Shown here in pieces: positions 9,596 to 51,320 of a DNA stretch of 64,000 nucleotides; within the stretch, counting starts at the first letter, position 1, and the number at the start of each line of letters is the position of its first letter. The translations under genes were made by a program, and so were the position numbers. Under the pieces are notes generated by a model that was given only the letters and a program-made list of their open reading frames with translations, made no database searches and was not told the origin of the DNA. This stretch comes from an archaeon. GTDB lineage: Archaea > Micrarchaeota > Micrarchaeia > Norongarragalinales > UBA97. The DNA lies in the NCBI GenBank assembly GCA_020057405.1, contig JAGVFW010000002.1, positions 1,621 through 65,620 on the forward strand. Direction: 5' to 3'.

Positions 9596-11391
9596 TTCTT
9601 GAGCACCACTAGCAACGCCAGCAAACCAATTAGCACGGAAAAGCTTATGAGTGCGAAAAACCCGCCCTTTGGCCCAACCGCCGCGTCGGGGACAAGCAGC
9701 CGCACCTTCATCTCGTGCGTTCCAGCTTCGACAAACTCGCAGCCGCGGCACTCAAGCGACGGGTAATAGCCCTCAAATATCGTGGCAATCGTTCCCGCCG
9801 TGCCATGAAGCGCAATTGAATTGCCGCTAACGTCATATGTTGCGCCCTGCACGAACGAGTAATTGCCTGGCTTTTCCCACACCACTGCCTCGTTGGTCAG
9901 CATTGCAGGAGAGGCGCCGTACGCGGCGTAGTTGCCGCCAACGCAGTCGACAATCCACCGCACCTGGTAGCTCGAGTCGGTCAAAAGCGGCTCGTCCTTG
10001 GCGGCAACGCCGCTGCTTTCAAACGCTCGGGCGGCCGGATCGAGGTTGGTGTAGAAGACCACGCCCTCGGCTGCAGGCTTGCCTGCCTGGATTGCCGAAT
10101 AGAAGTAAGGATAGGGGCACTTTGCGAAAAGCACTCGGCCAAAACCACTCTGGCCCGCAAGATATGCCGTCACCGCCTGCTTGGATGCCGCCTCGCCGGC
10201 GTAGTCAGTCGCCATGAGTGAAGCAAACGGCACGCTAATGACAATCAGCGCAATTGCAATCGCGTTATTTTTCGGCTCCCAGTTCCGCGCAAGCCAGCCG
10301 GCCGCGAAAAGCGCTGCGAACAAGACGTAAACAACGGGGTTGAGCGTTTGGAAGAACGGGATGAGGAAAGAGTTTGACAATCCCGCGGCAATGAGGACGC
10401 CGGTTGCAGCGAGTGCAAAGTCAACGCGGGGCTTGGCAGACTGGAAAATGCCTGCAAACTCCGCAACAAGCAAAAACGCCACGAACTCGCCAATCAGCAC
10501 GAACTGCTGGAGGTTCTGCCCCCAGTGCATGAGATAAAAAAGGCCTGCTGCGCCAACCGCGATTGCCAGCACTGCCGCCCGCCTGATGCCGGCGTTTGCG
10601 CGCAAAAAGTGGCGGAGCGCAAGCCACGCGATTGCGGTAGTGAAAAGCGGTCCGAGCCACGACAGGGCGACGACTGGCGTGTGCGGCTCGAACGAGAACG
10701 CGGGGCTGACGTACTTTCTAAATTCCAATAGCGACATTGCGAGGGGCGTGACGATGATTGCAAACACGAGCGCGCCCGCACCCGCGCCAAAGATTTCTGC
10801 CTTGCCCGCCTTTGACTTGCGCAAAAGCAGCCATGCAGCCGCGACGCCGGCAATGAGCGCAGTGTGCAGGCTCGCGAGGGCGGACAAGCCGAGCAGCGCG
10901 CCGGTTGCAACAGTCCCGCGCCAGTCGCCGAGGTTTTTCGCCCGCATTGCAGACTCGATGGCAAGCACTGCAAGCACGCCGCCTACTAGAGTCGGGAACC
11001 TGTCAACGCGAAGCCACGAGTAGAAGAACCCGTACGAGGCGATGAAGAGAAGGAGCATGAGCCCCTTGCGCTCGGCTTTGAGGCCCATCGCGTCAGCGAG
11101 TCGCCAGCAGGCGTAAGCGAGTCCGGCAACTGCGAGTGCGTCAACAAGCGCGTAAGCTGCAACCGGCCCGACGACTTGCCCGATGCCGTGCACTAGCCAA
11201 AAGCCTAGGATGTAGACGACGAGGATTGGCGAGCCGAGGTACCAGAGGCTAGTGTACTGGTCAAAGCCGTTTTGACTAGTAAGCATCACTGTTCCCAAGT
11301 GCGAGACGGTGTCAAGATTGTTTGGGAAGGATGAAAAGTAGATTGCCGCATAGGCCAAAAGCAGGACGGCAGCAGCGTGCAGGTAGCGCAT
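9592..11391 (-). CDS. large polytopic membrane protein with a C-terminal extracytoplasmic domain (about 220 aa) and a terminal TM anchor. Possibly a GT-C-like glycosyltransferase, polymerase or flippase-associated protein.
   Basis: About 13 hydrophobic segments within 450 aa, then a soluble domain and a final helix 'FFALISFSVLIGLLALLVVLKK'. The start is taken at 11391 (MRYLHAAAVLLL), directly after the upstream TAG. The longer track ORF to 11679 would overlap the upstream GT2 by 286 nt. Confidence 0.45.
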   Translation of the reverse strand: MRYLHAAAVLLLAYAAIYFSSFPNNLDTVSHLGTVMLTSQNGFDQYTSLWYLGSPILVVYILGFWLVHGIGQVVGPVAAYALVDALAVAGLAYACWRLADAMGLKAERKGLMLLLFIASYGFFYSWLRVDRFPTLVGGVLAVLAIESAMRAKNLGDWRGTVATGALLGLSALASLHTALIAGVAAAWLLLRKSKAGKAEIFGAGAGALVFAIIVTPLAMSLLEFRKYVSPAFSFEPHTPVVALSWLGPLFTTAIAWLALRHFLRANAGIRRAAVLAIAVGAAGLFYLMHWGQNLQQFVLIGEFVAFLLVAEFAGIFQSAKPRVDFALAATGVLIAAGLSNSFLIPFFQTLNPVVYVLFAALFAAGWLARNWEPKNNAIAIALIVISVPFASLMATDYAGEAASKQAVTAYLAGQSGFGRVLFAKCPYPYFYSAIQAGKPAAEGVVFYTNLDPAARAFESSGVAAKDEPLLTDSSYQVRWIVDCVGGNYAAYGASPAMLTNEAVVWEKPGNYSFVQGATYDVSGNSIALHGTAGTIATIFEGYYPSLECRGCEFVEAGTHEMKVRLLVPDAAVGPKGGFFALISFSVLIGLLALLVVLKK

Positions 11392-11393
11392 TG

Positions 11394-12392
11394 CTAAGCC
11401 CCTCCAGCTGCCTTCAGGGCCGACACTAGCTTGACTACATTCCTGACTACAAACAATTCCATGAACCCGAAAGAGTGCACGGGGTCGCCGGACTTTAGCG
11501 CGAGCCTGACTCCGTAGCCAAGCCACGGAATGAGGAGGAGCCCGAACGAAATCCCGATGACGGCGCCAAGGGTAACGCCAGTATATGCGCCCGTGAACTT
11601 GAGTGCCGACAGCCCGAGTGCGGCAAGCCCCGCCAGCAAAAGGACAAGGCAATATGTCGGTACAAGAAGCGGCCGCCATTCGCCGTAGCGCTTGAGCCTA
11701 AGGCCGATGCCCTTGCCGAACCACCGCGACTGGCGCATTGTCTCGCCAAAAGTTTCGGGGTCCTTGTGGTACTCGATTGCGGCGGGCTCGTAAACGGCTT
11801 TGAAGCCGGCAGCGTGGAAGCGCTGCGCCAGGTCGGTGTCCTCGAAGTAGAAAATCTTCTCGTTGAAGCCCTTTAGCTTGTCAATCGCTTTTCGCGAGTA
11901 AGTTCCAAGGCCAATCGGGCTTTGCGGGCCAATTGGCACCACTTGCGCCTGATTGGTGTCCCAAGTTACGCTTCGTTGTGCGGCAATGCAGCGCGCGATG
12001 AACGTGCGCGGCGGGTAGGCGAACACTTTATTGGCAATGCCGTCAAGTTCCGGGTTGGCAGCAAAGCGCTTTACCAGCGCCTCAAGGTATTTGCTGTCCG
12101 CAACCTGGTCGGCGTCGTGAAGCGTGATGAAATCGCCCTTGCTTCTCTCGATGCCGCGGTTTCTGGCAAAGGCTGCGCTGTGGCCGTTGGCGTAGCTCTT
12201 GAGCTTGATTCGCTTGTCTTTTTTCGCGTATTTTGCAACCAGTTCGGCAGTCCTGTCCGTGCTGCCATCGTCTGAGACGATTATTTCGAAGTTTTGGTAA
12301 GTCTGGCCCTGGATTGACTCAATGGCCTCGCCAACGTCCTTCTCCTCATTGTGGGCGGGGATAATGACGCTTGCGAGCGGATTTTTCTTCAT
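11394..12392 (-). CDS. GT2 glycosyltransferase with C-terminal TM helices (AglD/DPM-synthase-like architecture)
   Basis: 'ASVIIPAHNEEKDVGEAIESIQGQTYQNFEIIVSDDGSTDRT' GT2 domain, followed by 3-4 C-terminal TM segments. ATGA overlap with the upstream GT4. Confidence 0.8.
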   Translation of the reverse strand: MKKNPLASVIIPAHNEEKDVGEAIESIQGQTYQNFEIIVSDDGSTDRTAELVAKYAKKDKRIKLKSYANGHSAAFARNRGIERSKGDFITLHDADQVADSKYLEALVKRFAANPELDGIANKVFAYPPRTFIARCIAAQRSVTWDTNQAQVVPIGPQSPIGLGTYSRKAIDKLKGFNEKIFYFEDTDLAQRFHAAGFKAVYEPAAIEYHKDPETFGETMRQSRWFGKGIGLRLKRYGEWRPLLVPTYCLVLLLAGLAALGLSALKFTGAYTGVTLGAVIGISFGLLLIPWLGYGVRLALKSGDPVHSFGFMELFVVRNVVKLVSALKAAGGA

Positions 12393-13489
12393 TTCGGAGC
12401 CACCTCGCGATAGTGTGCAAGCGTGCGCTTCACCATGTGCTCTTTGGTGAAGCCCGAGAGGATGAGCTTTCGCGCGCTTCTGCCCATTGCCGAGCGCGCC
12501 CGCCTGTCGTTTGCCAGCTCAAGTACCGCCAACGCCATTGCCTTTGCGTCCCGCAGGGGCGTGATGCGGCCTTCGCGCTTGGAAATGATTTCCGCGTGCC
12601 CGCCACTGTCTGAGGCGATGACTGGCTTCTCGCACGACATTGCCTCAAGTAACGTCAGGCAGAATGGTTCGTAGACGCTTGAAAGCAAGTGAATGTCGCT
12701 GGCGTTGTAAAAACCGGCCAGGCTCTTTTCGATAGGCACTGGAAACACCCGCTCCACCGCTTCGGCAGTCATGCCGCGCTTCATTAGTCCGTGTTTGTCG
12801 AGAGGCGAGCGCAGTGCCAGTGCAATGCCCTTTCCGTGTTTGTCAGCAACAACTTGATTGAACGCAGAAATGAGGTAGTCGATTCCCTTGTTGAACTCCG
12901 CGTGGCCCACCCAAGTCAAAAGCATGGCGTTGGACGGGATTTTATGCCGCGCGCGAAACTCTTGCCCCGCCTTCGCGTCTGGCGAGAAGCGCTTTGAGTC
13001 AATGCCGTTGTAGACGGTCGTGACGTTGTCTTCCCGCGCGCCGTAGTACTTGACTAGCGCGTCCTTGACGTAATCGCTAACCGCCACGCACTTGTTTGCC
13101 CGCGCGCTTGCGCGCTCAAGCGACTTGTGTATGACGAAGTAGGGTTCCTGCTTGTGCCACGGCATTAGGCCTTCGGCGGGCTTTTGGCGATAGTAGTGCT
13201 CGCCGAGTGCCGCAACGCCGTGAAAAGTGCGGATGGCGCCAGCAGTGTTCCAGCTGATGTCGGTGTGAGCGTGGACAATGTCGTAAGCCTTGGCCTTCTT
13301 AGGCAGCTTTAGGCCATAAGTGAAGTCGGCCATTGCCATCGAGCGGCCGCTTGGGAAAAAGCCGTCGACTTGCAGTCCCGCGGCGCGCAGGCCAGTCATT
13401 AGGTTTAGCTCGACGTTGCCAACGCCGTTTGACTCTGCCGGCGGAACGGTGGATGCGAAGAGGACGCTAAGTGGCTGGTTAGTGGACAT
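12389..13489 (-). CDS. GT4 (group 1) glycosyltransferase
   Basis: 'EPFCLTLLEAMSCEKPVIASDSGGHAEII' is the GT-B E-x7-E motif region. First gene of a four-gene translationally coupled operon running 13489 to 8867. Confidence 0.85.
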   Translation of the reverse strand: MSTNQPLSVLFASTVPPAESNGVGNVELNLMTGLRAAGLQVDGFFPSGRSMAMADFTYGLKLPKKAKAYDIVHAHTDISWNTAGAIRTFHGVAALGEHYYRQKPAEGLMPWHKQEPYFVIHKSLERASARANKCVAVSDYVKDALVKYYGAREDNVTTVYNGIDSKRFSPDAKAGQEFRARHKIPSNAMLLTWVGHAEFNKGIDYLISAFNQVVADKHGKGIALALRSPLDKHGLMKRGMTAEAVERVFPVPIEKSLAGFYNASDIHLLSSVYEPFCLTLLEAMSCEKPVIASDSGGHAEIISKREGRITPLRDAKAMALAVLELANDRRARSAMGRSARKLILSGFTKEHMVKRTLAHYREVAPK

Positions 13490-13559: not shown

Positions 13560-16307
13560 CTAGGTGATGATGTCCTTTCGGGTGGTGTTGCCTGGTGAGT
13601 AGCCTATGGTTGTGGCCCATGAGGCGCTGTTGTTTGCGCGTAGTTCTAGCGTCTTGCTGTAGTCGGTGAAGTTTCCTTGTACGTCGAAGAGGCCGTATTG
13701 GCCTGTTGTGGTGACGTTGAACGTGCCTTTCATAACGCCTCCGATGTAGGCGGTTACGCTTGTGATTAAGTTCGCGTTGGCGCCAGTGAAGTAACCATAG
13801 ACCGTCATCGGTTGTGTGATTGTACCTGATTCCACGGAGTACCCTGGGCTGAAACTTACGGTGACGTTTTGCAGGAACGCCGTGTAGTTTTCGTTTACTG
13901 TACTGAATTTGGCTCGGTATTGGAGAAGTTTTCCGCTTACTACGGGTATGCTTAGGTTGCCTCCGTAGTATTCTTGGGAGAAGGTACTCCAGTTGCTTTC
14001 TAGTCCGCCGTTTCCAGCGGGGTTGCCAGAATTGTAGAGGGAGATTATTTCGGCTTCCGTGAGGGTTCGGTTCCATGCTTTAATGTCGTCAAGCGAGCCT
14101 TGGTAGTAGGATGAGGTTGTCCTGGCTTTTCCGAATGTTAGGGTGGTCGTGCCTTGCATTAGCCGGTACTGGTTGGTGCCGGAATTGAACGTCAGGCGAG
14201 TGCCGTTAATGTAGATTGCCCAGCCGCTTTGGTTTAGGAGTATTGTTACCATGCGCCACTTTCCGTCGTTGGGTAGGGCGCCTTCGTTAGTTACGGGGGT
14301 TACTCCCGTTGAGTTGACCAGGTAGTAGGTTAGCTGCAGGTGGCCTGTTCCGTTGACTGAGGCGGAGAATGCTTTGTTGCTGCTGTCGACATCTTGTCCT
14401 ACGAACATTGTTCTTGTGGTGTCTGAGCTTGATTGGCTTGGTTTCATCCACATGTTGATGGTGAGGTTGTCTGTGCTGACGTTGAAGAGTTGCTTTTCTG
14501 TGTCGATGAACGTTTGGCCGGCGGGGTAGAACGTGAGGCATTGTCCGATTACGCAGGTGCTAGTATTTAGGGTAAGGTTGCCGTAGAGTTTGCCGTTGGT
14601 CGTGTTTCCGGACAAATCGAGGGTCTTGTTGGTTACTGCTTCGTTGTCGCTTGAGTCGCCTAGGTCCCACCAGCCGGCTAGGGCGGTGTCGTTGAATAGG
14701 TAGGTCTTGGTTCTGAGTGCCAGGCTTACGTTGGTGAAGTTGTGGATGTATCCGCGGTTTCCTCGTCCGGTTGAGTCTTTTTCCCATTTGTAGACTTGGT
14801 TGACTTCGGAGTCAGTGAGGCTTCGGTTCCAAATGTGGAGTTCGTCTATGCTGCCGTTGAACGCGCGTGTGCAGGGAACGGCGTTTGAGTCGCAGCCGAC
14901 GTAGAGGTTGTTTACTGGTTTGCCGATTGTGATTGCCGCGACTGCGTTTACGGTTGAGTCGAGAGTTCCGTTGATGTAGTACCTGACTTTTCCGTCGGTT
15001 TTGCCGTAGGTCATTACGACGTGGACCCAGTTGCCGGTGTCGACGTTGGCGCTGGATGGTGGACAGGTTCCGCCGCTTACTCCGTCGTTTAGGTAGCAGG
15101 CTAGTTTGCCTGCTCCGTTGAAGCCCACGCCGAATAGCCATCCTGCGTAAGTTCCGTAGTCGTTGAATCGGCCTATTACTTCTGCTGGCGTTGAGACTGT
15201 TTTTATCCAAGCCATTACCGTGAAGTTGTTGAATCCTTCTGTGCTGTCTTTGTCGGTTACGTTTATGAAGTCTTTTTCTGAGCTGTTGTAGTTGTAGCAT
15301 CCGCCGATTATGCAGTCGTTGTTGTATGTGGGTTTGCCTGTGACGACTGATGAGAGGAAGCCGCTGTTGTTGAAGCGCGTTGAGTCGTGCGAGTCGTTCT
15401 CAAAGTGCATGCTCATGACGGCGTTGTCTATGGTGCTTAGTCCCATTGGCTCGTACCAGGCCCAGCTGACGGCGTCGATGTTGTCTGGCGTGTCGCGGTT
15501 TAGGACGAGTATTCTGCTGTAGTATGTTCCGTTGCCTGTAAAGGTTTGTTGGGTTGGGTAGTATGTGCCGTAGACGCTTTGGCTTTGAGCAGTTTGAGTA
15601 TTGTTGAACGCTCCGCTGGTGAATGTGTTGGCGCCAAAGTGGTCGACTGTGGGGTCTAGGAATAGCTGGTATCCCGGCTCTAGATGCGTGCCAGCATTAA
15701 AGTTAGTTAAGACGATACGGTAGGTGTTTCCTTCTTGTTCTTCTCTTGCCGTAAGTTGGTATCTGTTGGCCGCGTTTAGTATGTCGGAGAAGCTCCAGAC
15801 GTCGTAGTCGGAGTAGGTGCTAGTGTGTCCTGCTTCGTTTATTCCTTTGTAGTCTATTGGGAAGGTTACTGAGCCTGTGCCTGTTCGCATGAGTGGTTGT
15901 GTTGAGGTAATCTCGATTGTCAGGTTTGAGATGGACGTGAGGGTGTACGTTCCGGGGTTGAGTGTGGCTGTGAAGTTGAATTTGTAGGCTTGGGTGTCGG
16001 GCGAGTCGCCGCTTATTGAGCGGGTTTGGCCGTTTTCGGCTAGGATGTCGCGGGTGATTTGGCTTTTTGGTTTGTAGTAAGCGTCGCCTTGGAGGTATTG
16101 GGGTGGGATTGGTTGGCCGTTTATCTTTATGGCGACGGTTGCAGTGTACTCTGGTGAGGTGAATTGCACGCCTATTGGGGTTGTTTGGATTGTTGAGCCG
16201 CGGAAGCCGCGGGCTATGGCGTCGGCGTGTGCTATGGGGGTTATGAGGAAAAGTCCTACTAGGGCGACGGCCAGTAGGCGTAGCCATCTGGCGTGGTTTT
16301 CGTTCAT
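13560..16307 (-). CDS. secreted surface protein with two LamG/concanavalin-A-like lectin domains, extremely rich in N-X-S/T sequons (predicted N-glycoprotein)
   Basis: Signal peptide 'WLRLLAVALVGLFLITPIAHADA'. 'IDELHIWNRSLTDSEVNQVY' and 'LDDIKAWNRTLTEAEIISLY' are LamG_3-type signatures. About 35 sequons in roughly 915 aa. The start is taken at ATG 16307, preceded by a GGGAGAG Shine-Dalgarno-like element. The track ORF reaches 16442. Confidence 0.75.
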   Translation of the reverse strand: MNENHARWLRLLAVALVGLFLITPIAHADAIARGFRGSTIQTTPIGVQFTSPEYTATVAIKINGQPIPPQYLQGDAYYKPKSQITRDILAENGQTRSISGDSPDTQAYKFNFTATLNPGTYTLTSISNLTIEITSTQPLMRTGTGSVTFPIDYKGINEAGHTSTYSDYDVWSFSDILNAANRYQLTAREEQEGNTYRIVLTNFNAGTHLEPGYQLFLDPTVDHFGANTFTSGAFNNTQTAQSQSVYGTYYPTQQTFTGNGTYYSRILVLNRDTPDNIDAVSWAWYEPMGLSTIDNAVMSMHFENDSHDSTRFNNSGFLSSVVTGKPTYNNDCIIGGCYNYNSSEKDFINVTDKDSTEGFNNFTVMAWIKTVSTPAEVIGRFNDYGTYAGWLFGVGFNGAGKLACYLNDGVSGGTCPPSSANVDTGNWVHVVMTYGKTDGKVRYYINGTLDSTVNAVAAITIGKPVNNLYVGCDSNAVPCTRAFNGSIDELHIWNRSLTDSEVNQVYKWEKDSTGRGNRGYIHNFTNVSLALRTKTYLFNDTALAGWWDLGDSSDNEAVTNKTLDLSGNTTNGKLYGNLTLNTSTCVIGQCLTFYPAGQTFIDTEKQLFNVSTDNLTINMWMKPSQSSSDTTRTMFVGQDVDSSNKAFSASVNGTGHLQLTYYLVNSTGVTPVTNEGALPNDGKWRMVTILLNQSGWAIYINGTRLTFNSGTNQYRLMQGTTTLTFGKARTTSSYYQGSLDDIKAWNRTLTEAEIISLYNSGNPAGNGGLESNWSTFSQEYYGGNLSIPVVSGKLLQYRAKFSTVNENYTAFLQNVTVSFSPGYSVESGTITQPMTVYGYFTGANANLITSVTAYIGGVMKGTFNVTTTGQYGLFDVQGNFTDYSKTLELRANNSASWATTIGYSPGNTTRKDIIT

Positions 16308-16318
16308 TTTTCTCTCCC

Positions 16319-19300
16319 TCATTCGCTTAATCTCAACTCGCTTGTGACCGTGCTGTTTACGTAAATCCAGTAGCCGATTCCGGCTTCCATTCTCTTTAGG
16401 GTATTGAATGTCGAGTCCAAAGTCGGGTCGTAGGTTAGCCACTTTCCTGACGATTGGTTGTAGGCTTGTACTTTGGTGAAGTTGCTGGAGAGGTTTGCTA
16501 GCGCGTCGCTTGTGGCTCTGCCTTCGTATGGGTAGGCGAACATGTTCCAGCCGTGCGGGAATTGTAGTGTGGTGCTTGTTGGTCTAAAGCCGTTGTCTGT
16601 CATGAATGTGGCGTTTACGTTCATGAGTATCCAGTACCCTTCGCCGATGGAGAATTTGGATAAGGTTTGGAAGGATGAGCTGACGCTCGTGTCGTAGGTG
16701 AGCCATTTTCCTTGGGTTGCGTTGTAGGTTTGTATTTTAGTGTAATTTTCGTTTATTGGTGAGAGTACGCCTGTGATGTTTGCGTTTGTTGGCAGTACCA
16801 TGAATGAGGCGAGGTTCCAGCCTTTGGTGAGGTTGAGTCTCCAGACGTAGAGGTAGCCGGTCGAGTAGTTTTTGCTCGTGAGGTATGAGTTGTTGGCGCT
16901 GCACCAGATGTAGTACTTGCCTACTGGCCAGCTTCTGATGTCGCAGTTTCCTGCTCCGTCGTTTGGCGTGTCGCTAAAACAGGTTTGATTCTTGTTGAAG
17001 CTAGAGTTAGTAGAGTCGCCATAGCAACTGATGCTCAGCGTTAAGTTAGTTGGATCAGAGGCGCCATAGTAGATGTCAGTTGGCGCTCCCGTCACATAGG
17101 GCACTGAAGGTTCACTCAGCGTAATCGTAGGTGCACCGTACTGGTCGCTGAGGTTGATGCTCGTAGCCGTTAATCTGCCGTTGCTGGGATTGATGTAGGT
17201 CGTATATGTTTTCGTGCCGTTTGTTGTAGCGTTAAGTATCCACGTAGCTGACCTTATGTTAAAACCACCTCCGTACTTTATGTCGCCAAGATTGATGCTT
17301 GTGTTTCCAGGCCCGTAAGTTACGGTAACAGCGTCTTGCCGCGTAACTCGCATTCCTAAAACGCTCACTCCAGCTGGAGGGACGAAATCCATGAAAACGC
17401 TTGACGACATGTACTGCTGGGTGTTTGCAGAGGTTGTTATTTCAAATGGCTTTCCTACGGTTATAACCGAAACATTAGCCGTTGAGTGGAGAACAACTTC
17501 CGGTCTCAATTCGCCTCGGATAATCATATAGCCAATAACGAGGTTTCCCATAGTATCTGGAGTAGTACTAAAAGTGCAGGCCTTCAACTCTGTTGTGCCA
17601 CTAGGCGGGTTATCAATCGCCACGTACTGCTTATTATCAAAAGACTGAACTGAATCGTTCGTACCGGTTTGGCATAATCCCCCTGTCGCTCCAGGATCAA
17701 CGTATAGGCCAATATCGTTCCATACTGCCTTTGAATTCCCTACGTCGGCTGCTTTTTCACTCCAGGCTAGTACTACAACTAAGCGTTTGACGCCGCTAGG
17801 GAGGGTTAGGTTATACCTGAAAGCGCCACTGCCTCCGGAGACATTGCCAAAAAGAAGACCAGATTGCCATCCTGTCGGATCATTCGCTTGAAAGTGTGCA
17901 AGAACCGAGTCGACCTTCCCTGCACCAAAGGTGTTCATGAAATCCCGTCCAACGGTTTGGCTTAGATCGATCTTAGTTGAATTTAGGGGTATGGCACTCA
18001 TCATCAACAAAGCTTTAACCGCGGAAGCGTTGCCTTTCAACCAAGGATAATGATCCATCAAAGTCGCCACGACGCCGGCCACTGCGGGTGCAGCAAAACT
18101 AGTTCCCGAATCGGTTGTATAGCCCCCTGTCGTTGAATTTGCGGCAGTAATCAAGTAGCCGGGTGCGCTTATGTCTGGTTTAGTGCGATTATCTGGTGTA
18201 AATCCTCGGCTTGATTCATTATCGATGGTATCCCCCGAATTATTTCCGTTATCAAGAATGCTTCCGACAGTTATGGCGTTTTTAGCGCAGTTAGGTGCAT
18301 AGTTAATCGTTTGGAACGCAGGCCCATTATTAGCTGCTGAAATTACGTAAGTTTGGTTCTGAAAATAAGTTGCGTTATCTAAAGCCCTACTTACTGGATC
18401 CGTGCCGCAAACACCGCTAAGTAACCCGGCGGTATCGCTTATCGATACTAGGGTCGGATAAGGTGTGGTGTTTGAAATCCAACCTATATAGTAGGCTAAG
18501 CTGTGGTTGTCAGATTGATAAAGTGCGAAGGTAAGGTTACTAATTCCTGGCGCTATTCCTAAGTATTTTTGATTGCTAAGATTTCCTCTGCCAAGGAGGA
18601 TGCTTGCGACAAATGTCCCGTGGCTCTGATTTGATTGCACATAAGCCGCAGAGGCACATACTCCATTTGGACAAAGTGAGTTAGTATAGTTAGGTAAGTC
18701 TGGAAACGTGTTGTTATAGTCTAGATCTATTATGCCAACTGAAACGTTCCTTCCGTCATAGCGGAGGGGATTACCATCGAGATTAATGTTTCCTCTAAAA
18801 TAATCAGCACTAACTGCAGAGCTAGCCAGATTCATCGTTGGTTGACCGTGTTCTAAATCGAGTTCGACGTATACTACTTCGTTTCTATTGGCCATATTAC
18901 TTATTGATGCGAGTGGAATTTCGGCATGGTAGGCACTAATTATTGGAAGGTACGTTAGGGAATTGACTTCGATGGATTTTAGGTAGTTTTCTAAGTCTGA
19001 TTCAGCACCCCTGAATGGAGTAATGTATACTTTGACTTTCTCCGAAAGATCTGCTTTTGTTTTAATCATCTCGTAAAGTCCCGGAGTCATTTTTTGATTT
19101 TGTCGATTAACTCCGACCCACCTTACGAACGGAAGAGTTTGTAATCTGCTTAGGTCACTTAGTGGAATTTTTGCAAGTATCGAGTGATATGTGTGGTAGC
19201 CAAGAAAGACGGTGCCTTCTTGTTCGATAATTTTAAGCTTTTCTTTATCGATGCTATCGTTCACCATAATGAAGCCATAGAAATAGGGTTTTCCCGTTAC

Positions 19301-19561
19301 GTCGATCACAGATGAAATTTCAGAATCAAGTTTGACGGAAGGGTCCGGCGTATATTGTACGTTATCGAATACTAGAGAATACGGTTCAGTTCTTCTGTTT
19401 ACGTTATTTGCTGTGATTTCTTCTTGCGTTAATGGTTCTGCTTTTAAGTAGCCTAGAGCAATATCTTGGACGGCAGGTTCAAGATTATTTGAAAATTTGC
19501 TAAGGGCATTAACTGACGTAAATAAAATAAGTGCAATGGCCAAGATGGCAAACTTCCTCAT
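16319..19561 (-). CDS. secreted subtilisin-like serine protease (peptidase S8) with a long C-terminal multi-domain extension
   Basis: Signal 'MRKFAILAIALILFTSVNALS'. Catalytic triad motifs present: 'VGIIDLD' (Asp), 'HGTFVASI' (His), 'GTSFAAPAVAGVVATL' (Ser). Many N-X-S/T sequons. Low-GC gene. Confidence 0.85.
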   Translation of the reverse strand: MRKFAILAIALILFTSVNALSKFSNNLEPAVQDIALGYLKAEPLTQEEITANNVNRRTEPYSLVFDNVQYTPDPSVKLDSEISSVIDVTGKPYFYGFIMVNDSIDKEKLKIIEQEGTVFLGYHTYHSILAKIPLSDLSRLQTLPFVRWVGVNRQNQKMTPGLYEMIKTKADLSEKVKVYITPFRGAESDLENYLKSIEVNSLTYLPIISAYHAEIPLASISNMANRNEVVYVELDLEHGQPTMNLASSAVSADYFRGNINLDGNPLRYDGRNVSVGIIDLDYNNTFPDLPNYTNSLCPNGVCASAAYVQSNQSHGTFVASILLGRGNLSNQKYLGIAPGISNLTFALYQSDNHSLAYYIGWISNTTPYPTLVSISDTAGLLSGVCGTDPVSRALDNATYFQNQTYVISAANNGPAFQTINYAPNCAKNAITVGSILDNGNNSGDTIDNESSRGFTPDNRTKPDISAPGYLITAANSTTGGYTTDSGTSFAAPAVAGVVATLMDHYPWLKGNASAVKALLMMSAIPLNSTKIDLSQTVGRDFMNTFGAGKVDSVLAHFQANDPTGWQSGLLFGNVSGGSGAFRYNLTLPSGVKRLVVVLAWSEKAADVGNSKAVWNDIGLYVDPGATGGLCQTGTNDSVQSFDNKQYVAIDNPPSGTTELKACTFSTTPDTMGNLVIGYMIIRGELRPEVVLHSTANVSVITVGKPFEITTSANTQQYMSSSVFMDFVPPAGVSVLGMRVTRQDAVTVTYGPGNTSINLGDIKYGGGFNIRSATWILNATTNGTKTYTTYINPSNGRLTATSINLSDQYGAPTITLSEPSVPYVTGAPTDIYYGASDPTNLTLSISCYGDSTNSSFNKNQTCFSDTPNDGAGNCDIRSWPVGKYYIWCSANNSYLTSKNYSTGYLYVWRLNLTKGWNLASFMVLPTNANITGVLSPINENYTKIQTYNATQGKWLTYDTSVSSSFQTLSKFSIGEGYWILMNVNATFMTDNGFRPTSTTLQFPHGWNMFAYPYEGRATSDALANLSSNFTKVQAYNQSSGKWLTYDPTLDSTFNTLKRMEAGIGYWIYVNSTVTSELRLSE

Positions 19562-19659
19562 CTACTGCATATCCGTAGCGGTGTGGAGTTTAAATTACTT
19601 TGGTAGGGTTTGCATCAACTAGCAGTTTATTGCGAACATTAGTGGGAGTTGAGTGGCTT

Positions 19660-21114
19660 TTAGTGTACTGGCGTAAAGTAAAAAATTTGAAATTCTTTTT
19701 TACCATTTTTATCTATTAAGTTAATGGAGCATGTCTGATTAGAATTCGGATTTAAATTTCGTGGGGCAAATTTGCTCTGAAATTCAAACTGGTTTTCCTC
19801 TGTAAAGTTGTAGTTAAAAATAGGGGGATATTCATCGAGTGGAAAGCTGTAACCATTGTTTCCAGAATTATCGGTGCAATTTCCTGAAATCCATTCTTCG
19901 TCATTAGTGCTAGTATTGCTAATGATGTATAGATCTATAGGGTGCGGCGGAACATCAACGCAGCTATGGACTCCAGTTAGATTATAGTCAAATTTCAATG
20001 CTGGCGTGCCATTGTCGAGAAATAAATCTGAGAAACCACAATTTTTTAATCCGTATTCGGGATATGTGCTAATTGATATGCAGTAATTCTGAATAATTTT
20101 TGCGACTCCGCTTTCATTTACTTGGGTGCATCTTTGTTGTAGGGTTTGTTGTCTCCAGTCTGGTTCGGGTTTGTTCCAGTTGTTGGGCTCAGTTTCGTGA
20201 TAGGTGAAGTTAAGTGCTAGTTTTGTTTCACTATTTTCGTTCACTTCGAGGGCGCAAGCGTATTGGGTCGTGTTCCATTCTTGGTTTCCTTGGGTTGGGC
20301 GTAAGAGCCAGTATGTGAATGAGCGTGAGGCGTCAAGGGGGCAGTTGTCTTTTTCGAAGTGGGCGTAGGTCGTCGTTGTTTCTGGCGAGGTGCATTTGAC
20401 GGTTATGTTGGCGTTTGCTTGGTGGTCGGAGTAGATTTTGAAGCTTTGCCAGTGAGAGTTGGCAATTAGTCGGGCGTTTTCGAATGGTGCAGTGAACTGG
20501 GTTCGGCATATGTTTCCGATGCAATTCCACGGCCAGATTGAACTCCGGTCGTTTAAGTCAATCTGACTCCAGTTGATATTAATCGCAAAGTTTGTCTGCG
20601 GGTCAGAAGTTAAGTGTGAATAGCTAGAATCTAAGTCGCGTAGGTAGAGGCAGTAGCCGTTCTGAAAGAAGGCCAGTCCAGTTTCGTTTGCTAGGCCGTG
20701 GCATTGCGTTTCCGTTAAGTCGGCAATCTCGCTTCGGTCAACTAGATAGAAGTTTACTCCGTTGGGGTTGCTGTCGGGGCCAACTGTGAGGCCACAGTTA
20801 GTGGGATTGCGTTCAGGGCCTTGCTGCTCGCTTGTACCGTAACCGAGGCCTATATCGTTAGGTCCTCCGTTGCCACCCGAACCTGGGGTTGGAGTTGGCG
20901 TGACTTCTGGCGTTGGAGATGGTGTAGGTGACGGCGTGGCTGTAGGTTCGGGTGTGGGAGTTGGCGTGAGTGTGGTGTTTGATGAGCTGCCGTCAGTGTC
21001 GTTAAAGCCGCCGCCAAAGGTGTGTATGGTTTTGGAAACTTCTTCTATGCAGCCAGCAAAAATTAGTGCAAAAGATAGCGCAACTGCGCAAAATGCCAAA
21101 ACACTCAGTTTCAT
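19660..21114 (-). CDS. secreted Cys-rich protein with an N-terminal lipobox-like signal and a Pro/Thr-rich linker
   Basis: 'MKLSVLAFCAVALSFALIFAGCIEE' looks like a signal peptide with an [LI]-[AF]-A-G-C lipobox. It is followed by 'TPTPTPEPTATPSPTPSPTPEVTPTPTPGSGGNGG'. About 20 Cys in the C-terminal domain. Very low GC. Confidence 0.6.
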   Translation of the reverse strand: MKLSVLAFCAVALSFALIFAGCIEEVSKTIHTFGGGFNDTDGSSSNTTLTPTPTPEPTATPSPTPSPTPEVTPTPTPGSGGNGGPNDIGLGYGTSEQQGPERNPTNCGLTVGPDSNPNGVNFYLVDRSEIADLTETQCHGLANETGLAFFQNGYCLYLRDLDSSYSHLTSDPQTNFAININWSQIDLNDRSSIWPWNCIGNICRTQFTAPFENARLIANSHWQSFKIYSDHQANANITVKCTSPETTTTYAHFEKDNCPLDASRSFTYWLLRPTQGNQEWNTTQYACALEVNENSETKLALNFTYHETEPNNWNKPEPDWRQQTLQQRCTQVNESGVAKIIQNYCISISTYPEYGLKNCGFSDLFLDNGTPALKFDYNLTGVHSCVDVPPHPIDLYIISNTSTNDEEWISGNCTDNSGNNGYSFPLDEYPPIFNYNFTEENQFEFQSKFAPRNLNPNSNQTCSINLIDKNGKKEFQIFYFTPVH

Positions 21115-21178
21115 CCCAATTTACGTAAAGCTTAGTGTTGGGCGGAATTTAAGGACTTCGGAAAGACCAGCCCCGAGG

Positions 21179-22099
21179 CTAACCCTTAAGCACCTCGAAC
21201 TTGCTTTCGTAGTCGGATTCCTTTAGTTGCTTGAAGCGCGCGATGCCCTCCTTGAGCGTGGGGATCTTGCGGCCGAGCGTTTTCTCAAGCTTGCTTGAGT
21301 TTAGCGACACGTCGCGCGGGCGGTTTGCCGCAAGCATGCCGTCCTTTAGCTCAACTGGCTCGATTAGCGCCTTGTCAAAGCCGAAAGTCTCTGCCATTTG
21401 GGTTGCGAACTGCACGCGGTTGACGCGGTCGGGCGCCCCGCAGTGGAAAATTCCGGTCGCGTCGCTGACCACGAGCTCGCTAATCACCGCCGCCAAATCG
21501 TTTGCAAGCATCGGCGTGTTGAACTGGTTTGAAAACGCCTTGAATGGCGTTCCAGCGGAGAAGCTTTCGTAGAACATCATCGCGTAGTTTTTCTTGCCCC
21601 GCACGTTAAGGCCGTACATCGTCGTCCGCACTGCGGCGAAGTTGCCTCCTGCAGCGACGACGGCATTCTCGCCGTTGAACTTTGAAACAGAATAGTAGTT
21701 GGCCGGGTTCGTCTCGTCTGTCTCGACGTACATTCCTCCCGGTTTCTTGCCGTCGAAGACAAAGTCGGTCGAGACGTGAACGAGGCGAATGTCTTTTGCC
21801 TTGCAGTAGGCGGCGGCATTGGCGGGTGCAGTTGCGTTTAGCGCGTCCGCTTCGGCGTGGTGGTCTTCGCAGTAGTCGACGTTTGTAAGGGCCGCAGTGT
21901 GGATGATTGCGTCTGGTTTAGCGCTGTCGAATGCGGCCTTTAGGGCGGCAGGGTTGCAAATGTCGGCCTTGAGGCTACTGCAGTTGCCGTACTTGACGAC
22001 GCTTGCGTCGCTAAGTAAGTAAAGCTCATGGCTTTGCGAAAGTTTGTGGGCGAGTGCTGTGCCAAGCAGGCCAGTTCCGCCCGTTACTACAATGCGCAT
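21179..22099 (-). CDS. rmlD: dTDP-4-dehydrorhamnose reductase-like (RmlD family SDR)
   Basis: 'MRIVVTGGTGLLGTAL' and RmlD-like length/architecture (about 306 aa). The start is taken at 22099, after a G-rich SD-like stretch. The track ORF starts at 22138. Confidence 0.6.
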   Translation of the reverse strand: MRIVVTGGTGLLGTALAHKLSQSHELYLLSDASVVKYGNCSSLKADICNPAALKAAFDSAKPDAIIHTAALTNVDYCEDHHAEADALNATAPANAAAYCKAKDIRLVHVSTDFVFDGKKPGGMYVETDETNPANYYSVSKFNGENAVVAAGGNFAAVRTTMYGLNVRGKKNYAMMFYESFSAGTPFKAFSNQFNTPMLANDLAAVISELVVSDATGIFHCGAPDRVNRVQFATQMAETFGFDKALIEPVELKDGMLAANRPRDVSLNSSKLEKTLGRKIPTLKEGIARFKQLKESDYESKFEVLKG

Positions 22100-37149: not shown

Positions 37150-37488
37150 TCAAGGCGTGATTTTGAGCACTGCGCCTACTTGCTGCTTGAGTTGCGGCAA
37201 GTCCTTCTCTACGGTAGCCCAGACGCTTTCGATGTCCACGCCGAGATAGTTGTGGATGAGCTTGTCGCGCATGCCCGCAATGTCCTTCCAAGGCACTTGC
37301 GCGTGCTTTTTCTTGAGTTCGGGTGAGACTTGCTTGCAGGCCTCGCCAATGATTTCGATTTGCCTGATGACCGCGTCCTGGATGAGCGAATTTCCCTTGA
37401 ATTCTTTTTCGGAAATGTCGGCCGTATAGTCTTCAATCTTGCCTATGGAGTCAAGGATGTGCTTCAGGTATACCGAATTGGCTTTCAA
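37150..37488 (-). CDS. hepT: HepT-like toxin (DUF86 nucleotidyltransferase substrate-binding protein)
   Basis: 'RDKLIHNY' matches the Rx4HxY HepT catalytic motif. 112 aa, 4-nt overlap with the upstream MNT gene. Confidence 0.85.
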   Translation of the reverse strand: MKANSVYLKHILDSIGKIEDYTADISEKEFKGNSLIQDAVIRQIEIIGEACKQVSPELKKKHAQVPWKDIAGMRDKLIHNYLGVDIESVWATVEKDLPQLKQQVGAVLKITP

Positions 37489-45515: not shown

Positions 45516-45965
45516 TTATGCTATTCCAAACCCAAAAAATGTTTTTAGGAAGTCGAGTATTGAATCTAACGTGCTGCGTTGTCTTTGTTGTTCCTTTTTT
45601 ATTTCTTCAACTTCTTGGCGCAGTTGTTTTGTTTCTGATTTTGGAATAGGCTCGTAGGTAACCGTGGGAGTTGGCGTATTAGAGACTGATGGCGCGGGTT
45701 CCATTGTTGGCCTTGATGTAGGTGAAGGAACCGGCGTACTAGTGGCTGATGGTTTCGGTGTTGGCGAAGCTGGCTGTAAAGTTGATTTTCCATTCAGACA
45801 ATATTCGTTATCTGGGCACTGGGAACAATAGCCCCAATCTCCACACGTATAACTTCCACTGTCAGAAATGCAGCTGTGCCACCTATGGCAGCCATTCTGG
45901 TGTGCTAAAGAAAAGGTTACGAAAATCAAGAGTAGCGCTAAAATTACTTTTCTTAGGATAGTCAT
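45516..45965 (-). CDS. small secreted Cys-rich protein with a PT-rich linker and a charged C-terminal helix
   Basis: Signal 'MTILRKVILALLLIFVTFSLA', then 8 Cys in 40 aa, 'PTPKPSATSTPVPSPTSRPT...', and 'LRQEVEEIKKEQQRQR'. Locally low GC. Confidence 0.5.
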   Translation of the reverse strand: MTILRKVILALLLIFVTFSLAHQNGCHRWHSCISDSGSYTCGDWGYCSQCPDNEYCLNGKSTLQPASPTPKPSATSTPVPSPTSRPTMEPAPSVSNTPTPTVTYEPIPKSETKQLRQEVEEIKKEQQRQRSTLDSILDFLKTFFGFGIA

Positions 45966-48260: not shown

Positions 48261-51200
48261 GTGGGTTTAGTGGTCGATACTTTAGTTCTTGCTATCTCGG
48301 TCATTCTCTTCGCAATTCCGGGCATTTTCCTCTCGGCAGCGCTATTTCGGCGAACGTCGCTTGACTGGCTTGAGAAGGGGTTACTTGGTGTAGTCTTAAG
48401 CTGCGTGGCAATGCCCGTGCTTGCCATCCTCGAGCTCGTCTTTTTCGCAATCAAGTTCAACGGCATGCTGCTTTTCGCCAACTTCCTTCTCCTGGTACTC
48501 GTCGCCATCGTCGCCTACGCTTACCAGGGAATGCCAAAGCTAGAGTTTCACCGCCCGCGCATACCATTCCTTGACGGAAAGTTTGAGTGGGAAAAGGACA
48601 AGAATCTAGTCTTCGGCGCGGTTCTGTTAATCCTGCTGCTCATTACCTTCTGGGTCAGGTTCGCACCCGCCTGGGCGGATAACTTTTTTGAGTTCGACCC
48701 TATTTTCTACAGCCACGTTACGGAAATACTGGCGAAGAACGGCGTCATCCCTGCCGAGTCAAGCGAAGTTTACTACCCGCTGACGAAAGACCTGCGTGTT
48801 TACCCTATTGTGCCCTACTTGGGGGCGCATATTTACGCGATTTACCACGCGATTGTCGGCGGCCCGTTCATCAAGTCAGACTTTCACTTAGTCATCGAGA
48901 TTTACCCGCCCCTTATGGCAATACTCACTTCATTTGCAGTCTACCTGCTCTTCCGCCGGCAGGCGAATGACTGGATTGGCCTGATAGCGGCTGGCACGCT
49001 GGCGACAATGCCGCAGCTAGTCAGCAAGTTCGGTGCAGGTGTCAACGAACTGCAGCCGTGGGGCCTCTTCAGCGCCGTTTTCGTCATCGCAGCCACCTTC
49101 CTTGCAATGTCGCAAAAGAGCTACCGCTTCGCAGTCTTGGCCGGCATCGGACTCTTCGGAGCCATGCTTGGCACGGCGCAGGGCCTCTGGCCTGCAGCAG
49201 CAATCGCCTCTTTCTTCCTGCTTCACGCGCTCGTTTCCTACCTTCGCGAGGAGTTAGATTTCCGTGCGGTCGCCATTTACGCCATCATCGCCCTTCCGGG
49301 AGTCCTCGGCGCGCTCTTGTTTAACTTCTACCGCTCGGGCCTGACGCTCGGAATTGGCAACCTGATGTCGAATGCAGGTGCGTTGTTCAAACTCGGCACA
49401 CTCCAGTACCTGCTTATCGCCGCAGTTGCAGTCGCCGTGTTCCTGCTTGCAGTTCAGCAGTTCGTCCTGCCCAGGCTAAGGCAGGTCACGCCTCACCCGA
49501 AGCCCGTCAGCGTTGCTGCAATGCTGATTGCGCTGGCAATAGTCTTCATCGCAGTCCCGGCTGTTCCCGGCATGCTCGGCGATTTTCTCAACAGTTCCGC
49601 CGGCTTTGCCCGACAGGGGAGTGCCCTGGGCATGACGATTGCAGAGGAAAACGCGACCACGCCCGGCCTGTACTTCGGCGCGTTTGGCAACATCAATCCC
49701 GATGTCCTCCTTCCTGCCGCCGCGCTTCTAATCTCCCTCTTCGCGTTCATCAAGCTCTTGATTGCCGGTAGACGGATTGCGGCTGGCGCTGTTGTATTGG
49801 GTGTGCTGCTTATCACGGCGTTCAACTCGTTTACCGACTCGATGCTTTTGTGGGTTGCCAACAACCTGTTGAGCGGCTATTCGCTTTTCACGCAGTTTGT
49901 CACCGGCAACGACTTGTTCGTCTACATGCTTGTTTCCATCATCTCGCTATTGCTTGCCATGCTCCTCGTCAGGGAAGACCCGATTCCGTCGGAGCTTCTC
50001 TACCTCGTCATCGCAATTTTCCCCGTCGCCTACATCGGCTTAAACAAGCTCAAGTTCATGCCGCACCTGGCACTTGCCCTGGCAATCGCGTTCCCGTTCG
50101 CCCTCTCTATGGGCCTCAAAATCATCCAGACGCTCTCGACCGAGCTTAAGGGCGAGAGTGGCCGCAAGATTGCTGTGAAGGCCGGCCTTGCCCTCATCGT
50201 CATCATCGGCGGTCTAGTGCTTTACGCGCAGTCAAACACGCTTGACAACTCAATGGCAGGCCTGCAGTACACCCGCATCTCGAGCGACTGGCTGTCAAGC
50301 TACGAGTGGATGCGCACGGCACCCTCGTTTGACAAGTCATTCTGCACCAACACTTACGGTTACGACTGCCGCGTGCTCTCATGGTGGGATTACGGCCACT
50401 GGACTACGTTCTTCGGCGAGCAAAAGAGCGTGCTTGACCCCGGCAACCGCTATCCTGACTTCAACCAAGGCACGGCAAGGGCTTTTGTCCAAGGCAACAT
50501 CACTGACCTGCTTTACACCGTTCGCTACCACCAGGCGACGCACATTCTTGCCGACGCGCAGCTAGTGCAGAAGTGGGGCGCACTCGTGTTCCTAAGCGGC
50601 ACGTGCGCGCACTCGCAGTACGCAACCTGTCCAGAGAAGCCCGAGATTGACTACAAGAACGGCGCCGGCAGAAGCACTTACGAGGCCGAGCACTACTTCG
50701 AGTTCCTCACGAGTTCCGGCACCTGCCCAGCGCAGTTGACCGGCGTGGCGTTACCCGCATTCAAGAGCAGCCTGACGAACGCCGTCTACTGCTTTACCGA
50801 CACGGAGTACCTGCTTTTGACTTCGCAGGGCATCGACCCGAACTTCAAGCGCAAGTACAAGATAATCGGCCGCGACACTGTCGACGCCGCGCGCCTAGAG
50901 AAGGACACGGCTTACCTCTTCGGCTACACGCAAGGCCAGTTCATCAACGTGAACCCCGACCTCACCTACGTCGGCCTGAACAACACGGTCATCGACTCGG
51001 CCTTCACGCGCCTCTTCTTCTTCGAGTACATGCCTGGAATGCAGCTTGACCACCGCTCGCCAAGCGGCGAAGTAAAGATATTCCGCATCCTACCGGAGTT
51101 CATCAGCGGCTCTACAATCGCAAGCAGCAGCAACTTAGCGTCGACGCCAAGCCCGACTCCGATACCCTCGGCAACTCCCGAGCCAACGCCGAGTGCAAAC

Positions 51201-51320
51201 GAGACTGGAACTAACCTGACCTCATCAAGCCCCACTCCTTCGGCTAGCTCGTCAGTAACGCCGAGCCCAACGCCGGCGCCTTCAACAAGCCCGACGCCCG
51301 TTCCCTCGCCCACGCCATAG
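48261..51320 (+). CDS. aglB: archaeal oligosaccharyltransferase AglB (STT3 homologue) with a C-terminal Pro/Thr/Ser-rich tail
   Basis: About 13 N-terminal TM segments. The diagnostic 'WWDYGHW' (in 'CRVLSWWDYGHWTTFFGE') sits in the C-terminal soluble domain. The final about 65 aa are 'PSPTPIPSATPEPTPS...SPTPVPSPTP'. Confidence 0.9.
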   Translation: MGLVVDTLVLAISVILFAIPGIFLSAALFRRTSLDWLEKGLLGVVLSCVAMPVLAILELVFFAIKFNGMLLFANFLLLVLVAIVAYAYQGMPKLEFHRPRIPFLDGKFEWEKDKNLVFGAVLLILLLITFWVRFAPAWADNFFEFDPIFYSHVTEILAKNGVIPAESSEVYYPLTKDLRVYPIVPYLGAHIYAIYHAIVGGPFIKSDFHLVIEIYPPLMAILTSFAVYLLFRRQANDWIGLIAAGTLATMPQLVSKFGAGVNELQPWGLFSAVFVIAATFLAMSQKSYRFAVLAGIGLFGAMLGTAQGLWPAAAIASFFLLHALVSYLREELDFRAVAIYAIIALPGVLGALLFNFYRSGLTLGIGNLMSNAGALFKLGTLQYLLIAAVAVAVFLLAVQQFVLPRLRQVTPHPKPVSVAAMLIALAIVFIAVPAVPGMLGDFLNSSAGFARQGSALGMTIAEENATTPGLYFGAFGNINPDVLLPAAALLISLFAFIKLLIAGRRIAAGAVVLGVLLITAFNSFTDSMLLWVANNLLSGYSLFTQFVTGNDLFVYMLVSIISLLLAMLLVREDPIPSELLYLVIAIFPVAYIGLNKLKFMPHLALALAIAFPFALSMGLKIIQTLSTELKGESGRKIAVKAGLALIVIIGGLVLYAQSNTLDNSMAGLQYTRISSDWLSSYEWMRTAPSFDKSFCTNTYGYDCRVLSWWDYGHWTTFFGEQKSVLDPGNRYPDFNQGTARAFVQGNITDLLYTVRYHQATHILADAQLVQKWGALVFLSGTCAHSQYATCPEKPEIDYKNGAGRSTYEAEHYFEFLTSSGTCPAQLTGVALPAFKSSLTNAVYCFTDTEYLLLTSQGIDPNFKRKYKIIGRDTVDAARLEKDTAYLFGYTQGQFINVNPDLTYVGLNNTVIDSAFTRLFFFEYMPGMQLDHRSPSGEVKIFRILPEFISGSTIASSSNLASTPSPTPIPSATPEPTPSANETGTNLTSSSPTPSASSSVTPSPTPAPSTSPTPVPSPTP

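Follow-up and report, generated by a model that had tools for sequence, protein, structure and literature searches.

We have analysed a 64,000-nucleotide stretch (the window) of an archaeal metagenome contig, JAGVFW010000002.1, in which three neighbouring genes between positions 13560 and 21178 form an island of low GC content inside a large cluster of glycan-biosynthesis genes. All three are read from the minus strand and lie in a longer series of sugar-metabolism genes of the same orientation. They encode a LamG-domain protein of 915 amino acids (13560..16307, start codon ATG at 16305-16307), an S8 subtilase of 1080 amino acids (16319..19561) and a cysteine-rich protein of 484 amino acids (19660..21114). 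The gap between the S8 and LamG genes is 11 nt and holds a GGAG-like motif; these two genes probably form one unit and the Cys-rich gene a separate one.

The gene content is as described in a first-pass annotation made from the DNA alone. The LamG protein has two LamG/ConA-like domains at residues 344-502 and about 637-750 (PF13385, E 1.2e-43, 149 bits against a cut-off of 27.6). The S8 protein matches PF00082 (E 1.3e-29, 103.9 bits against a cut-off of 21.8), and candidate catalytic residues D279, H314 and S488 can be read in the sequence from the motifs GIID, HGT and GTSFAAP. Its best solved relatives are subtilisin-like serine proteases (PDB chains 9ues_B and 3afg_A). The alignment with 3afg_A, entitled ‘Subtilisin-like serine protease’, spans the catalytic domain at residues 266-539 (E 1.4e-21), leaving approximately 260 N-terminal and 540 C-terminal residues that match no known domain. 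The C-terminus (residues ~905-1075, 16319-16870) consists of two tandem repeats of about 85 amino acids with the pattern GWN..F..P ... GKWLTYD ... F.TL ... G.GYWI, which correspond to no Pfam family and lie in the part of the gene assigned below to codon class 1. In the Cys-rich protein, a hydrophobic N-terminal stretch that closes with LIFAG-C22 is followed by a Pro/Thr linker (residues ~49-77) and a body with 16 Cys. Its lipobox-like LIFAGC, as read from the sequence, has Phe at position -3, which is non-consensus for the [LVI][ASTVI][GAS]C type. This protein is without a family match in Pfam, PDB or NCBIfam, and its AlphaFold model is unusable (predicted local distance difference test score, pLDDT, of 37). 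Sub-domain Pfam searches of the unannotated parts of all three proteins gave nothing above threshold, and domain searches revealed no nuclease domain in the S8 or LamG proteins. The signal peptides claimed for the three proteins agree with their Sec-like N-termini, as seen by inspection only.

By exact computation the interval is 47.8% GC, compared with 57.0% in the remaining window. No other segment of similar size matches it: outside the island, the lowest 7.6-kb window has at least 55.1% GC (standard deviation 0.9 points), and the dip is real and far beyond chance. A 1-kb sliding scan gives mostly 55-61% GC over the 64 kb and a single broad trough at about 13.5-21 kb with its minimum, 37.9%, at 19.0-20.0 kb. 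The trough is uneven: the LamG gene has 51.9% GC, the final 885 nt of S8 have 49.6%, the segment 17204-20154 has 42.4% and 20155-21114 has 50.5%. The first-pass annotation had thus placed the dip correctly, and its report of GC below 35% near 19.7 kb is borne out by 200-300-nt windows at 19.59-19.9 kb (31.5-34.7%). It had overdrawn the rest, since the flanks measure about 57% rather than 60%, and 40-45% throughout the interval is too extreme when only 17204-20154 reaches 42.4%.

Two explanations had been offered for the dip: horizontal acquisition of a surface-protein cassette, or no transfer at all, with low GC as a by-product of encoding glycoproteins rich in Asn, Thr, Ser, Tyr and Ile. The 48 other genes of the window supplied a table of native codon usage, and the expected GC was that of each protein re-encoded with this table. 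The island proteins are indeed rich in Asn (8-10%), Thr (9-13%) and Ser. This composition costs about 3 points, since their expected GC is approximately 54.5% and typical native genes have about 57.5%, and amino-acid bias is therefore a minor contributor. The observed values are lower still. The LamG gene has 52.0% GC where 54.7% is expected, and its GC content at third codon positions (GC3) is 0.637 instead of 0.722 (z -5.9). The S8 gene is at 45.4% instead of 54.8%, with a GC3 of 0.467 where 0.719 is expected (z -19), and the Cys-rich gene at 45.6% instead of 54.4%, with a GC3 of 0.466 against 0.717 (z -12.6). Among the 48 other genes the absolute z of GC3 does not exceed 3.1, and both genes that border the island have native codons, namely that for a GT4-family glycosyltransferase on the left (12389..13489, minus strand; PF00534/PF13439; z -0.2) and that for an RmlD-like sugar reductase on the right (21179..22099, minus strand; PF04321, E 3.5e-65). 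The low-GC signature that had been noted for a small gene at 45516-45965 (about 43% GC) is likewise present, with 43.5% GC observed and 57.0% expected, and a GC3 of 0.345 in place of 0.707 (z -10). That low GC can arise from amino-acid content alone in this DNA is illustrated by the HEPN gene at 37150-37488, which has a GC content of 0.51 and yet a native GC3 of 0.69. In the island, 5.5-12 GC points are missing; the same effect accounts for about 3 of them and leaves GC3 and two-fold codon choice deviating by up to 19 standard deviations; it is refuted as a sufficient cause, and we give an explanation without transfer next to no credence. With composition controlled, a match to native GC3 and codon usage was not seen in any of the three genes, which favours the transfer reading.

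A tetranucleotide comparison had also been suggested. After normalisation for base composition the island does deviate, with r 0.35-0.42 compared with a median of 0.90 elsewhere, but re-encoding its proteins with native codons reproduces the deviation fully (r 0.36-0.43). This result speaks for the amino-acid explanation, and we have rejected the tetranucleotide deviation as evidence of transfer. It also holds a caution for method: the tetranucleotide signal is here wholly an effect of protein composition, and it is two-fold codon choice that carries the real signal.

Synonymous codon choice in the island follows two dialects. Class 1 comprises the LamG gene, codons 787-1080 of the S8 gene and, more weakly, codons 1-320 of the Cys-rich gene. 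Class 2 comprises the segment 17204-20154 together with the small gene at 45.5 kb and is A/T-ending throughout. A preference for A over G is common to both. Codons for Lys, Glu and Gln (NNR) end in A in 76-83% of cases across the island and the small gene, compared with 33% natively (p 1e-5 to 1e-21); put as the fraction ending in G, class 1 has 0.17-0.24 (LamG 0.17, p 9e-22), class 2 has 0.19-0.23 and native genes 0.67. AGA accounts for 0.36 of Arg codons in the LamG gene and the 3´ end of the S8 gene, 0.35 in the low-GC segment and 0.33 in the small gene, but only 0.05 natively. The dialects part at the pyrimidine-type two-fold codons (NNY; Asn, Asp, Tyr, His, Phe and Cys), of which the fraction ending in C is 0.80-0.94 in class 1 (0.94 in LamG alone), 0.37-0.46 in class 2 and 0.79 in native genes. 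At four-fold sites, class 1 has 30-36% A and 9-18% G, where native genes have 16% and 27%, and C is still the commonest base; ATA makes up 0.39 of Ile codons in the LamG gene and the S8 3´ end (native 0.08). No homology was found between the S8 C-terminal part and LamG, both of class 1. We considered and rejected the idea that class 1 is an ameliorated low-GC import, because the change from T to C would be complete beyond the native level and that from A to G not even started.

The class 2 part of the island is one contiguous low-GC core of 2.95 kb (17204..20154; GC3 0.39). It takes in S8 codons 1-786, a 98-nt spacer on the promoter side of the S8 gene and, beyond this spacer, the final 164 Cys-rich codons, and both genes are compositionally chimeric. 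Binary segmentation of in-frame GC3 divides the region at 21190, 20154 and 17203. Those that fall within genes, the second and third, were examined by shuffling synonymous codons among positions for the same amino acid in 1000 permutations, and none of these reached the log-likelihood ratio of 26 at S8 codon 786 (17203) or of 9.6 at Cys-rich codon 320 (20154). By the same test there is no internal GC3 change point in LamG (p 0.65) or in the control, the oligosaccharyltransferase gene aglB (p 0.06). Both ends of the core lie inside intact reading frames, and these two compositional breakpoints point indirectly to mosaicism driven by recombination. Breakpoints that keep the frame are also what chimeras of homologous alleles would produce, and the contig, which is on record at NCBI and JGI, is metagenome-derived. 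An assembly artefact, in which reads of two strains or species from the same community, one with lower GC than the other, were joined across a shared variable surface locus, has accordingly to be weighed. We find it improbable, as the two flanks have native composition and run on into a single co-directional array of glycan genes, no repeat of a length that could mislead an assembler was found at 17.2 or 20.15 kb, and the signature recurs independently in the small gene at 45.5 kb. Moreover, the class 1 parts are themselves non-native, so a chimera would leave the island standing.

Exact look-ups of window proteins drew a blank, and they are known only as products of this 69,866-nt contig. The flanking genes point to the identity of the host. 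The best match of the RmlD-like protein in a genome collection is 49% identical and stems from a groundwater Candidatus Micrarchaeota metagenome-assembled genome (MAG) of 57% GC (contig L001); in a metagenome collection the best identity was 36%, with no close relatives found. Also conserved on L001 are the adjacent epimerase, with 75% identity over 342 residues, and the GT2 gene, and there is an extra flippase gene that is absent from the window. By these matches the host is a Micrarchaeota-like member of the DPANN archaea, with a GC content near the top of the range reported for that phylum, 26-60% (PMC12892359). The RmlD-like gene is the last that is syntenic with L001. The 810 nt beyond it (4165-4974), up to the contig end, have a GC content of 0.49-0.51, show no homology to the island, its first gene included, and carry a fragment of an IS200-like Y1 transposase (PF01797, E 8e-9); a single stray tblastx match to the window (27 bits) concerned unrelated DNA near 1.9 kb. 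The same 810 nt also gave a sub-threshold match to the N-terminus of a restriction-enzyme R subunit. In both genomes, then, the junction beyond RmlD would be a variable spot of lower GC.

Lineage distribution, proposed earlier as a further check, differs among the three proteins. Two Micrarchaeota MAGs, among them that of L001 (57.6% GC), encode proteins with 36% identity to the LamG protein. The homologue in the L001 MAG, which may be a paralogue, uses native-type codons (GC3 0.80, NNR G-ending 0.66, four-fold A 0.08), so the class 1 dialect does not belong to the gene family as such. Its locus (L165) continues with several HEPN/nucleotidyltransferase pairs. A second LamG homologue, with 33% identity over 86% of the length, adjoins a tyrosine integrase and a DnaA-like gene. 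This homologue, which is sequon-dense, is encoded at 10001-13117 of the ENA scaffold L162 (24,376 nt, 50% GC), with the integrase at 13956-14486. The scaffold also has dozens of small unannotated open reading frames (ORFs) and two large proteins of 882 and 756 amino acids with low GC3; it is probably an integrative or mobile element or an archaeal virus. The class 1 dialect was considered as a hallmark of this putative element and rejected, since only one of its genes has it. The S8 protein, beyond its self-match, finds a metagenomic protein with a Big_3_5 match and a faint Dockerin match at 27% identity and then weaker matches (one on a bacterial contig), and the Cys-rich protein has no homologue but itself among 5.8 billion clusters. 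An S8 protein without a close relative and an orphan Cys-rich protein are typical of accessory genes. Scans of viral contigs with all three proteins found no relatives.

The LamG homologues in the closest relative bear on whether class 1 is foreign at all. Only the 2.95-kb core and the small gene may have come from elsewhere, with the LamG gene, the S8 C-terminal part and Cys-rich codons 1-320 being native. The C/A-ending dialect would then reflect translational selection in very highly expressed, S-layer-like genes of an archaeon with few tRNAs, whose GNN and UNN anticodons would favour NNC and NNA codons. The presence of the family in the relative fits this proposal, as do NNY codons that end in C at or above the native level and the prominence of C at four-fold sites; a hint in the same direction (n=132 codons) comes from the gene for ribosomal protein S26e on another archaeal contig (L172), which has A-rich four-fold sites and C-ending NNY. 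It sits poorly with the homologue in the sister MAG, which at equal GC has G-ending NNR and 8% A at four-fold sites. ATA for Ile and AGA for Arg, both prominent in class 1, are usually rare codons, not optimal ones; the preference for A over G is common to the clearly AT-rich core; and nothing in the window measures expression. A native origin of the class 1 parts is in our view rather unlikely.

The second feature that unites the island genes is the abundance of sequons (N-X-S/T, where X is not Pro) in their products. Against the expectation from shuffles of each protein, the LamG protein has 34 sequons where 16 are expected (z 5), the S8 protein 39 where 16.5 are expected (z 6.5) and the Cys-rich protein 14 where 8.5 are expected (z 2.2). 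The high density claimed earlier, with about 35 in LamG, is hence confirmed, at about twice the compositional expectation in LamG and S8. No other protein of the window is enriched, and the small protein at 45516-45965 has 0 sequons. The enrichment persists inside the class 2 patch, with z 4.9 for S8 residues 1-786 and z 3.1 for Cys-rich residues 321-484. Micrarchaeota homologues of LamG are denser still (z 8), and the nearest, probably bacterial, homologues of S8 are not enriched. Archaeal sources of the DNA are indicated, as the island proteins would have evolved under N-X-S/T glycosylation whatever the donor lineage.

A candidate for the enzyme that modifies these sequons is encoded on the same contig. 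The AglB/STT3 oligosaccharyltransferase (48261..51320, plus strand) matches PF02516 (E 1.3e-9), has the motif WWDYG at residues 708-712 and matches TIGR04154 (archaeo_STT3) with E 2e-26, below the family cut-off. Given the enriched sequons, the export-like N-termini and the WWDYG of this AglB, it is reasonable to regard the island proteins as its predicted substrates. AglB had been called adjacent; its gene belongs to the same glycan cluster, at a distance of 27 kb from the island. Its tail (residues ~955-1019, about 60 amino acids) is rich in Pro, Thr and Ser and much resembles the linkers found in the Cys-rich protein and the small protein, but belongs to a gene with native-type codons.

Integration hallmarks were sought in vain. 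The window has no tRNA gene or other RNA gene or relevant Rfam family, the search for att-like direct or inverted repeats at the island edges returned short repeats at chance level only, and neither the island nor its edges contain an integrase-sized ORF or any domain beyond S8 and LamG. Replacement by recombination fits this better than site-specific integration. Of the traits of a classical integrative island, the locus has the foreign composition and lacks the hallmarks of integration; of those of a flexible envelope island, it has the envelope and glycosylation setting, the secreted sequon-rich products and, in compositional terms, the mosaicism.

To account for the composition, breakpoints, sequon enrichment, domain content and synteny break observed here, we favour, with modest confidence, a horizontally exchanged and recombination-patched surface-protein island in the glycan cluster of a Micrarchaeota-like archaeon. 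Of the two original explanations this retains horizontal acquisition (GC3 z -5.9 to -19) over amino-acid bias, at only about 3 GC points. Transfer of a single cassette is, however, too simple, given two codon dialects with intragenic breaks, LamG relatives in the host phylum and no mobility hallmarks found. The island DNA would not have evolved in place and would have reached this genome by horizontal exchange with other archaea that N-glycosylate their proteins. The latest arrivals, namely the 2.95-kb core and the small gene, would stem from a donor of approximately 35-45% GC that is most plausibly another member of the DPANN/Micrarchaeota. We propose that the core was brought in when diverged alleles of one cassette recombined, and that both of its junctions are in frame for this reason. 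The products would be exported by Sec, N-glycosylated by the AglB of the same contig with glycans made by the surrounding enzymes, and displayed on the surface, where they probably mediate attachment or proteolysis at the interface with a host or partner. Turnover of the island would alter the surface that is presented to viruses and partners.

Several points weigh against this exchange scenario. NNY codons of LamG end in C more often than native ones, and a simple low-GC import predicts otherwise. The LamG family occurs in the host's own phylum. No donor was identified, the S8 and Cys-rich proteins are without close homologues and the viral collection yielded nothing, just as every hallmark of mobility that was sought (tRNA, flanking direct repeat, integrase-sized ORF, extra domain match) went unfound. 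The window contains no ribosomal or highly expressed genes with which to calibrate expression-linked codon bias and comes from a metagenome assembly. Finally, the synteny comparison involves a single relative, with 45-75% amino-acid identity over the flanks, whose contig ends 810 nt past the junction. One intriguing, if doubtful, extension is that the Cys-rich, S8 and LamG proteins form a host-attachment module that is exchanged and intragenically patched among DPANN archaea, which would give these episymbionts a means of surface or antigenic variation. The core would then be a fresh low-GC Micrarchaeota allele, and the class 1 remainder would bear the mark of an import at an earlier date or of codons reserved for high expression in a genome with few tRNAs.

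The small gene that shares the class 2 dialect (45516..45965, minus strand) encodes an exported protein of 149 amino acids with a signal or anchor helix, a Cys/His module, a Pro/Thr linker and a long C-terminal helix. The conserved module, HQNGCHRWHSC..SD.G.Y.CGD.G.C..CPDN.YC, has no Pfam model, and the AlphaFold model offers only an N-terminal helix, an irregular Cys knot and the long C-terminal helix. A recorded JGI call covers only the last 62 residues, but homology to the family over the full length (residues 5-146) shows that the 149-residue ORF is the true gene. The family has 695 representatives with a signal peptide and invariant Cys, His and Trp columns, and fusions to staphylococcal-nuclease domains are frequent. 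Some variants share the C-terminal helix of the protein studied here, among them one from a Micrarchaeota MAG; the nearest named member is of Micrarchaeota MAG origin. The closest homologue of the gene is of low GC (GC3 0.31) amid neighbours at 0.51-0.64 on the archaeal contig that also carries ribosomal protein S26e (L172, 2437-2844), and another looks native in a 38%-GC Micrarchaeota MAG (L171, 1441-1995). A homologue on a bacterial contig (L174, 10001-10642; GC3 0.60, surroundings 0.70-0.83) adjoins a staphylococcal-nuclease gene and lies about 3 kb from a serine recombinase. By its distribution, the family seems to behave like a travelling gene.

A single large cluster for glycan biosynthesis and N-glycosylation occupies about 1.5 to 52.5 kb of the window, with glycosyltransferases and sugar-nucleotide enzymes on both sides of the island. 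It holds GT2, GT4 and PMT_2-type transferases, many nucleotide-sugar enzymes and a PF00953 initiating transferase. Two paralogous sugar C-methyltransferases (PF08421/PF08484; 29094-30383 and 37843-39123) and a radical-SAM/SPASM enzyme (34557-35690) suggest unusually modified sugars in the glycans of this archaeon. An ORF of 695 codons without a family match (9592-11679) overlaps a GT2 gene on the same strand (11394-12392) by 286 nt, an overlap that makes an internal true start probable; its product probably crosses the membrane several times and acts in the glycan pathway. The HEPN gene (motif RDKLIHNY) and a nucleotidyltransferase gene at 37485-37775 (GSHARGD), both on the minus strand, resemble a toxin-antitoxin pair by inspection and sit in a local GC dip to about 0.50 at 37-38 kb. 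Further away, at 60393-61145 and 61151-62500 (minus strand), are two secreted- or anchored-looking proteins of native GC and no family match, one of which has 7.2% Cys and CG..C repeats. They carry only 1 and 0 sequons, so heavy sequon loading is specific to the island among exported proteins.

If the preferred interpretation, an exchanged and patched surface island, is correct, the locus offers a delimited example of how an ultra-small and probably host-dependent archaeon renews its surface. Genes for N-glycosylated adhesins and proteases would be swapped, and patched within their reading frames, inside the very cluster that builds their glycans, and candidate host-interaction proteins in Micrarchaeota would have been identified. 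This is not a new kind of system. It is a familiar type of flexible cell-surface island, found here in a little-studied phylum.

Individual parts of the island recall known proteins. The catalytic domain of the S8 protein, with its D/H/S motifs, aligns at residues 266-539 with PDB 3AFG, which we take to be Tk-SP of Thermococcus kodakarensis. Unlike Tk-SP, it adds long N- and C-terminal extensions, 39 sequons and the two C-terminal repeats. The SPEARE proteins of Nanohaloarchaeota, a subject of work by Hamm and colleagues (PNAS, 2019), are reportedly giant single polypeptides that combine protease, adhesion (LamG-like) and restriction-endonuclease domains. The likeness lies in serine-protease and LamG-like adhesion functions on a DPANN surface with a presumed role at the host interface, but here they are encoded by separate genes (1080 and 915 amino acids) and no nuclease domain was found.

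At the level of the locus, the nearest parallels are other archaeal islands. ‘Ca. Mancarchaeum acidiphilum’ Mia14, of the same phylum-level lineage as this host, has an expansion of LamG-like jelly-roll proteins with a proposed role in host interaction, and some of the LamG loci and glycosyltransferases are on predicted genomic islands (PMC5498576). The LamG loci of Mia14 are linked to genes for type IV pili, whereas no pilus genes were seen here and LamG is paired with an S8 protease inside a glycan cluster. The cell-wall island GI1 of Haloquadratum walsbyi has genes for surface glycoproteins and for subtilisin-like proteases that carry PT repeats, and homologous recombination as well as mobile elements contribute to its diversification (PMC4535781). 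Compared with GI1, the host is a DPANN/Micrarchaeota-like archaeon, the island has only three genes in 7.6 kb, and its variability is inferred from composition, intragenic breakpoints and one distant relative. Both islands nevertheless combine an envelope and glycosylation setting with surface glycoproteins, subtilisin-like proteases, Pro/Thr-rich segments and orphan genes, and the diversity of GI1, ascribed to recombination and mobile elements, has been read as surface variation under virus pressure (PMC4535781).

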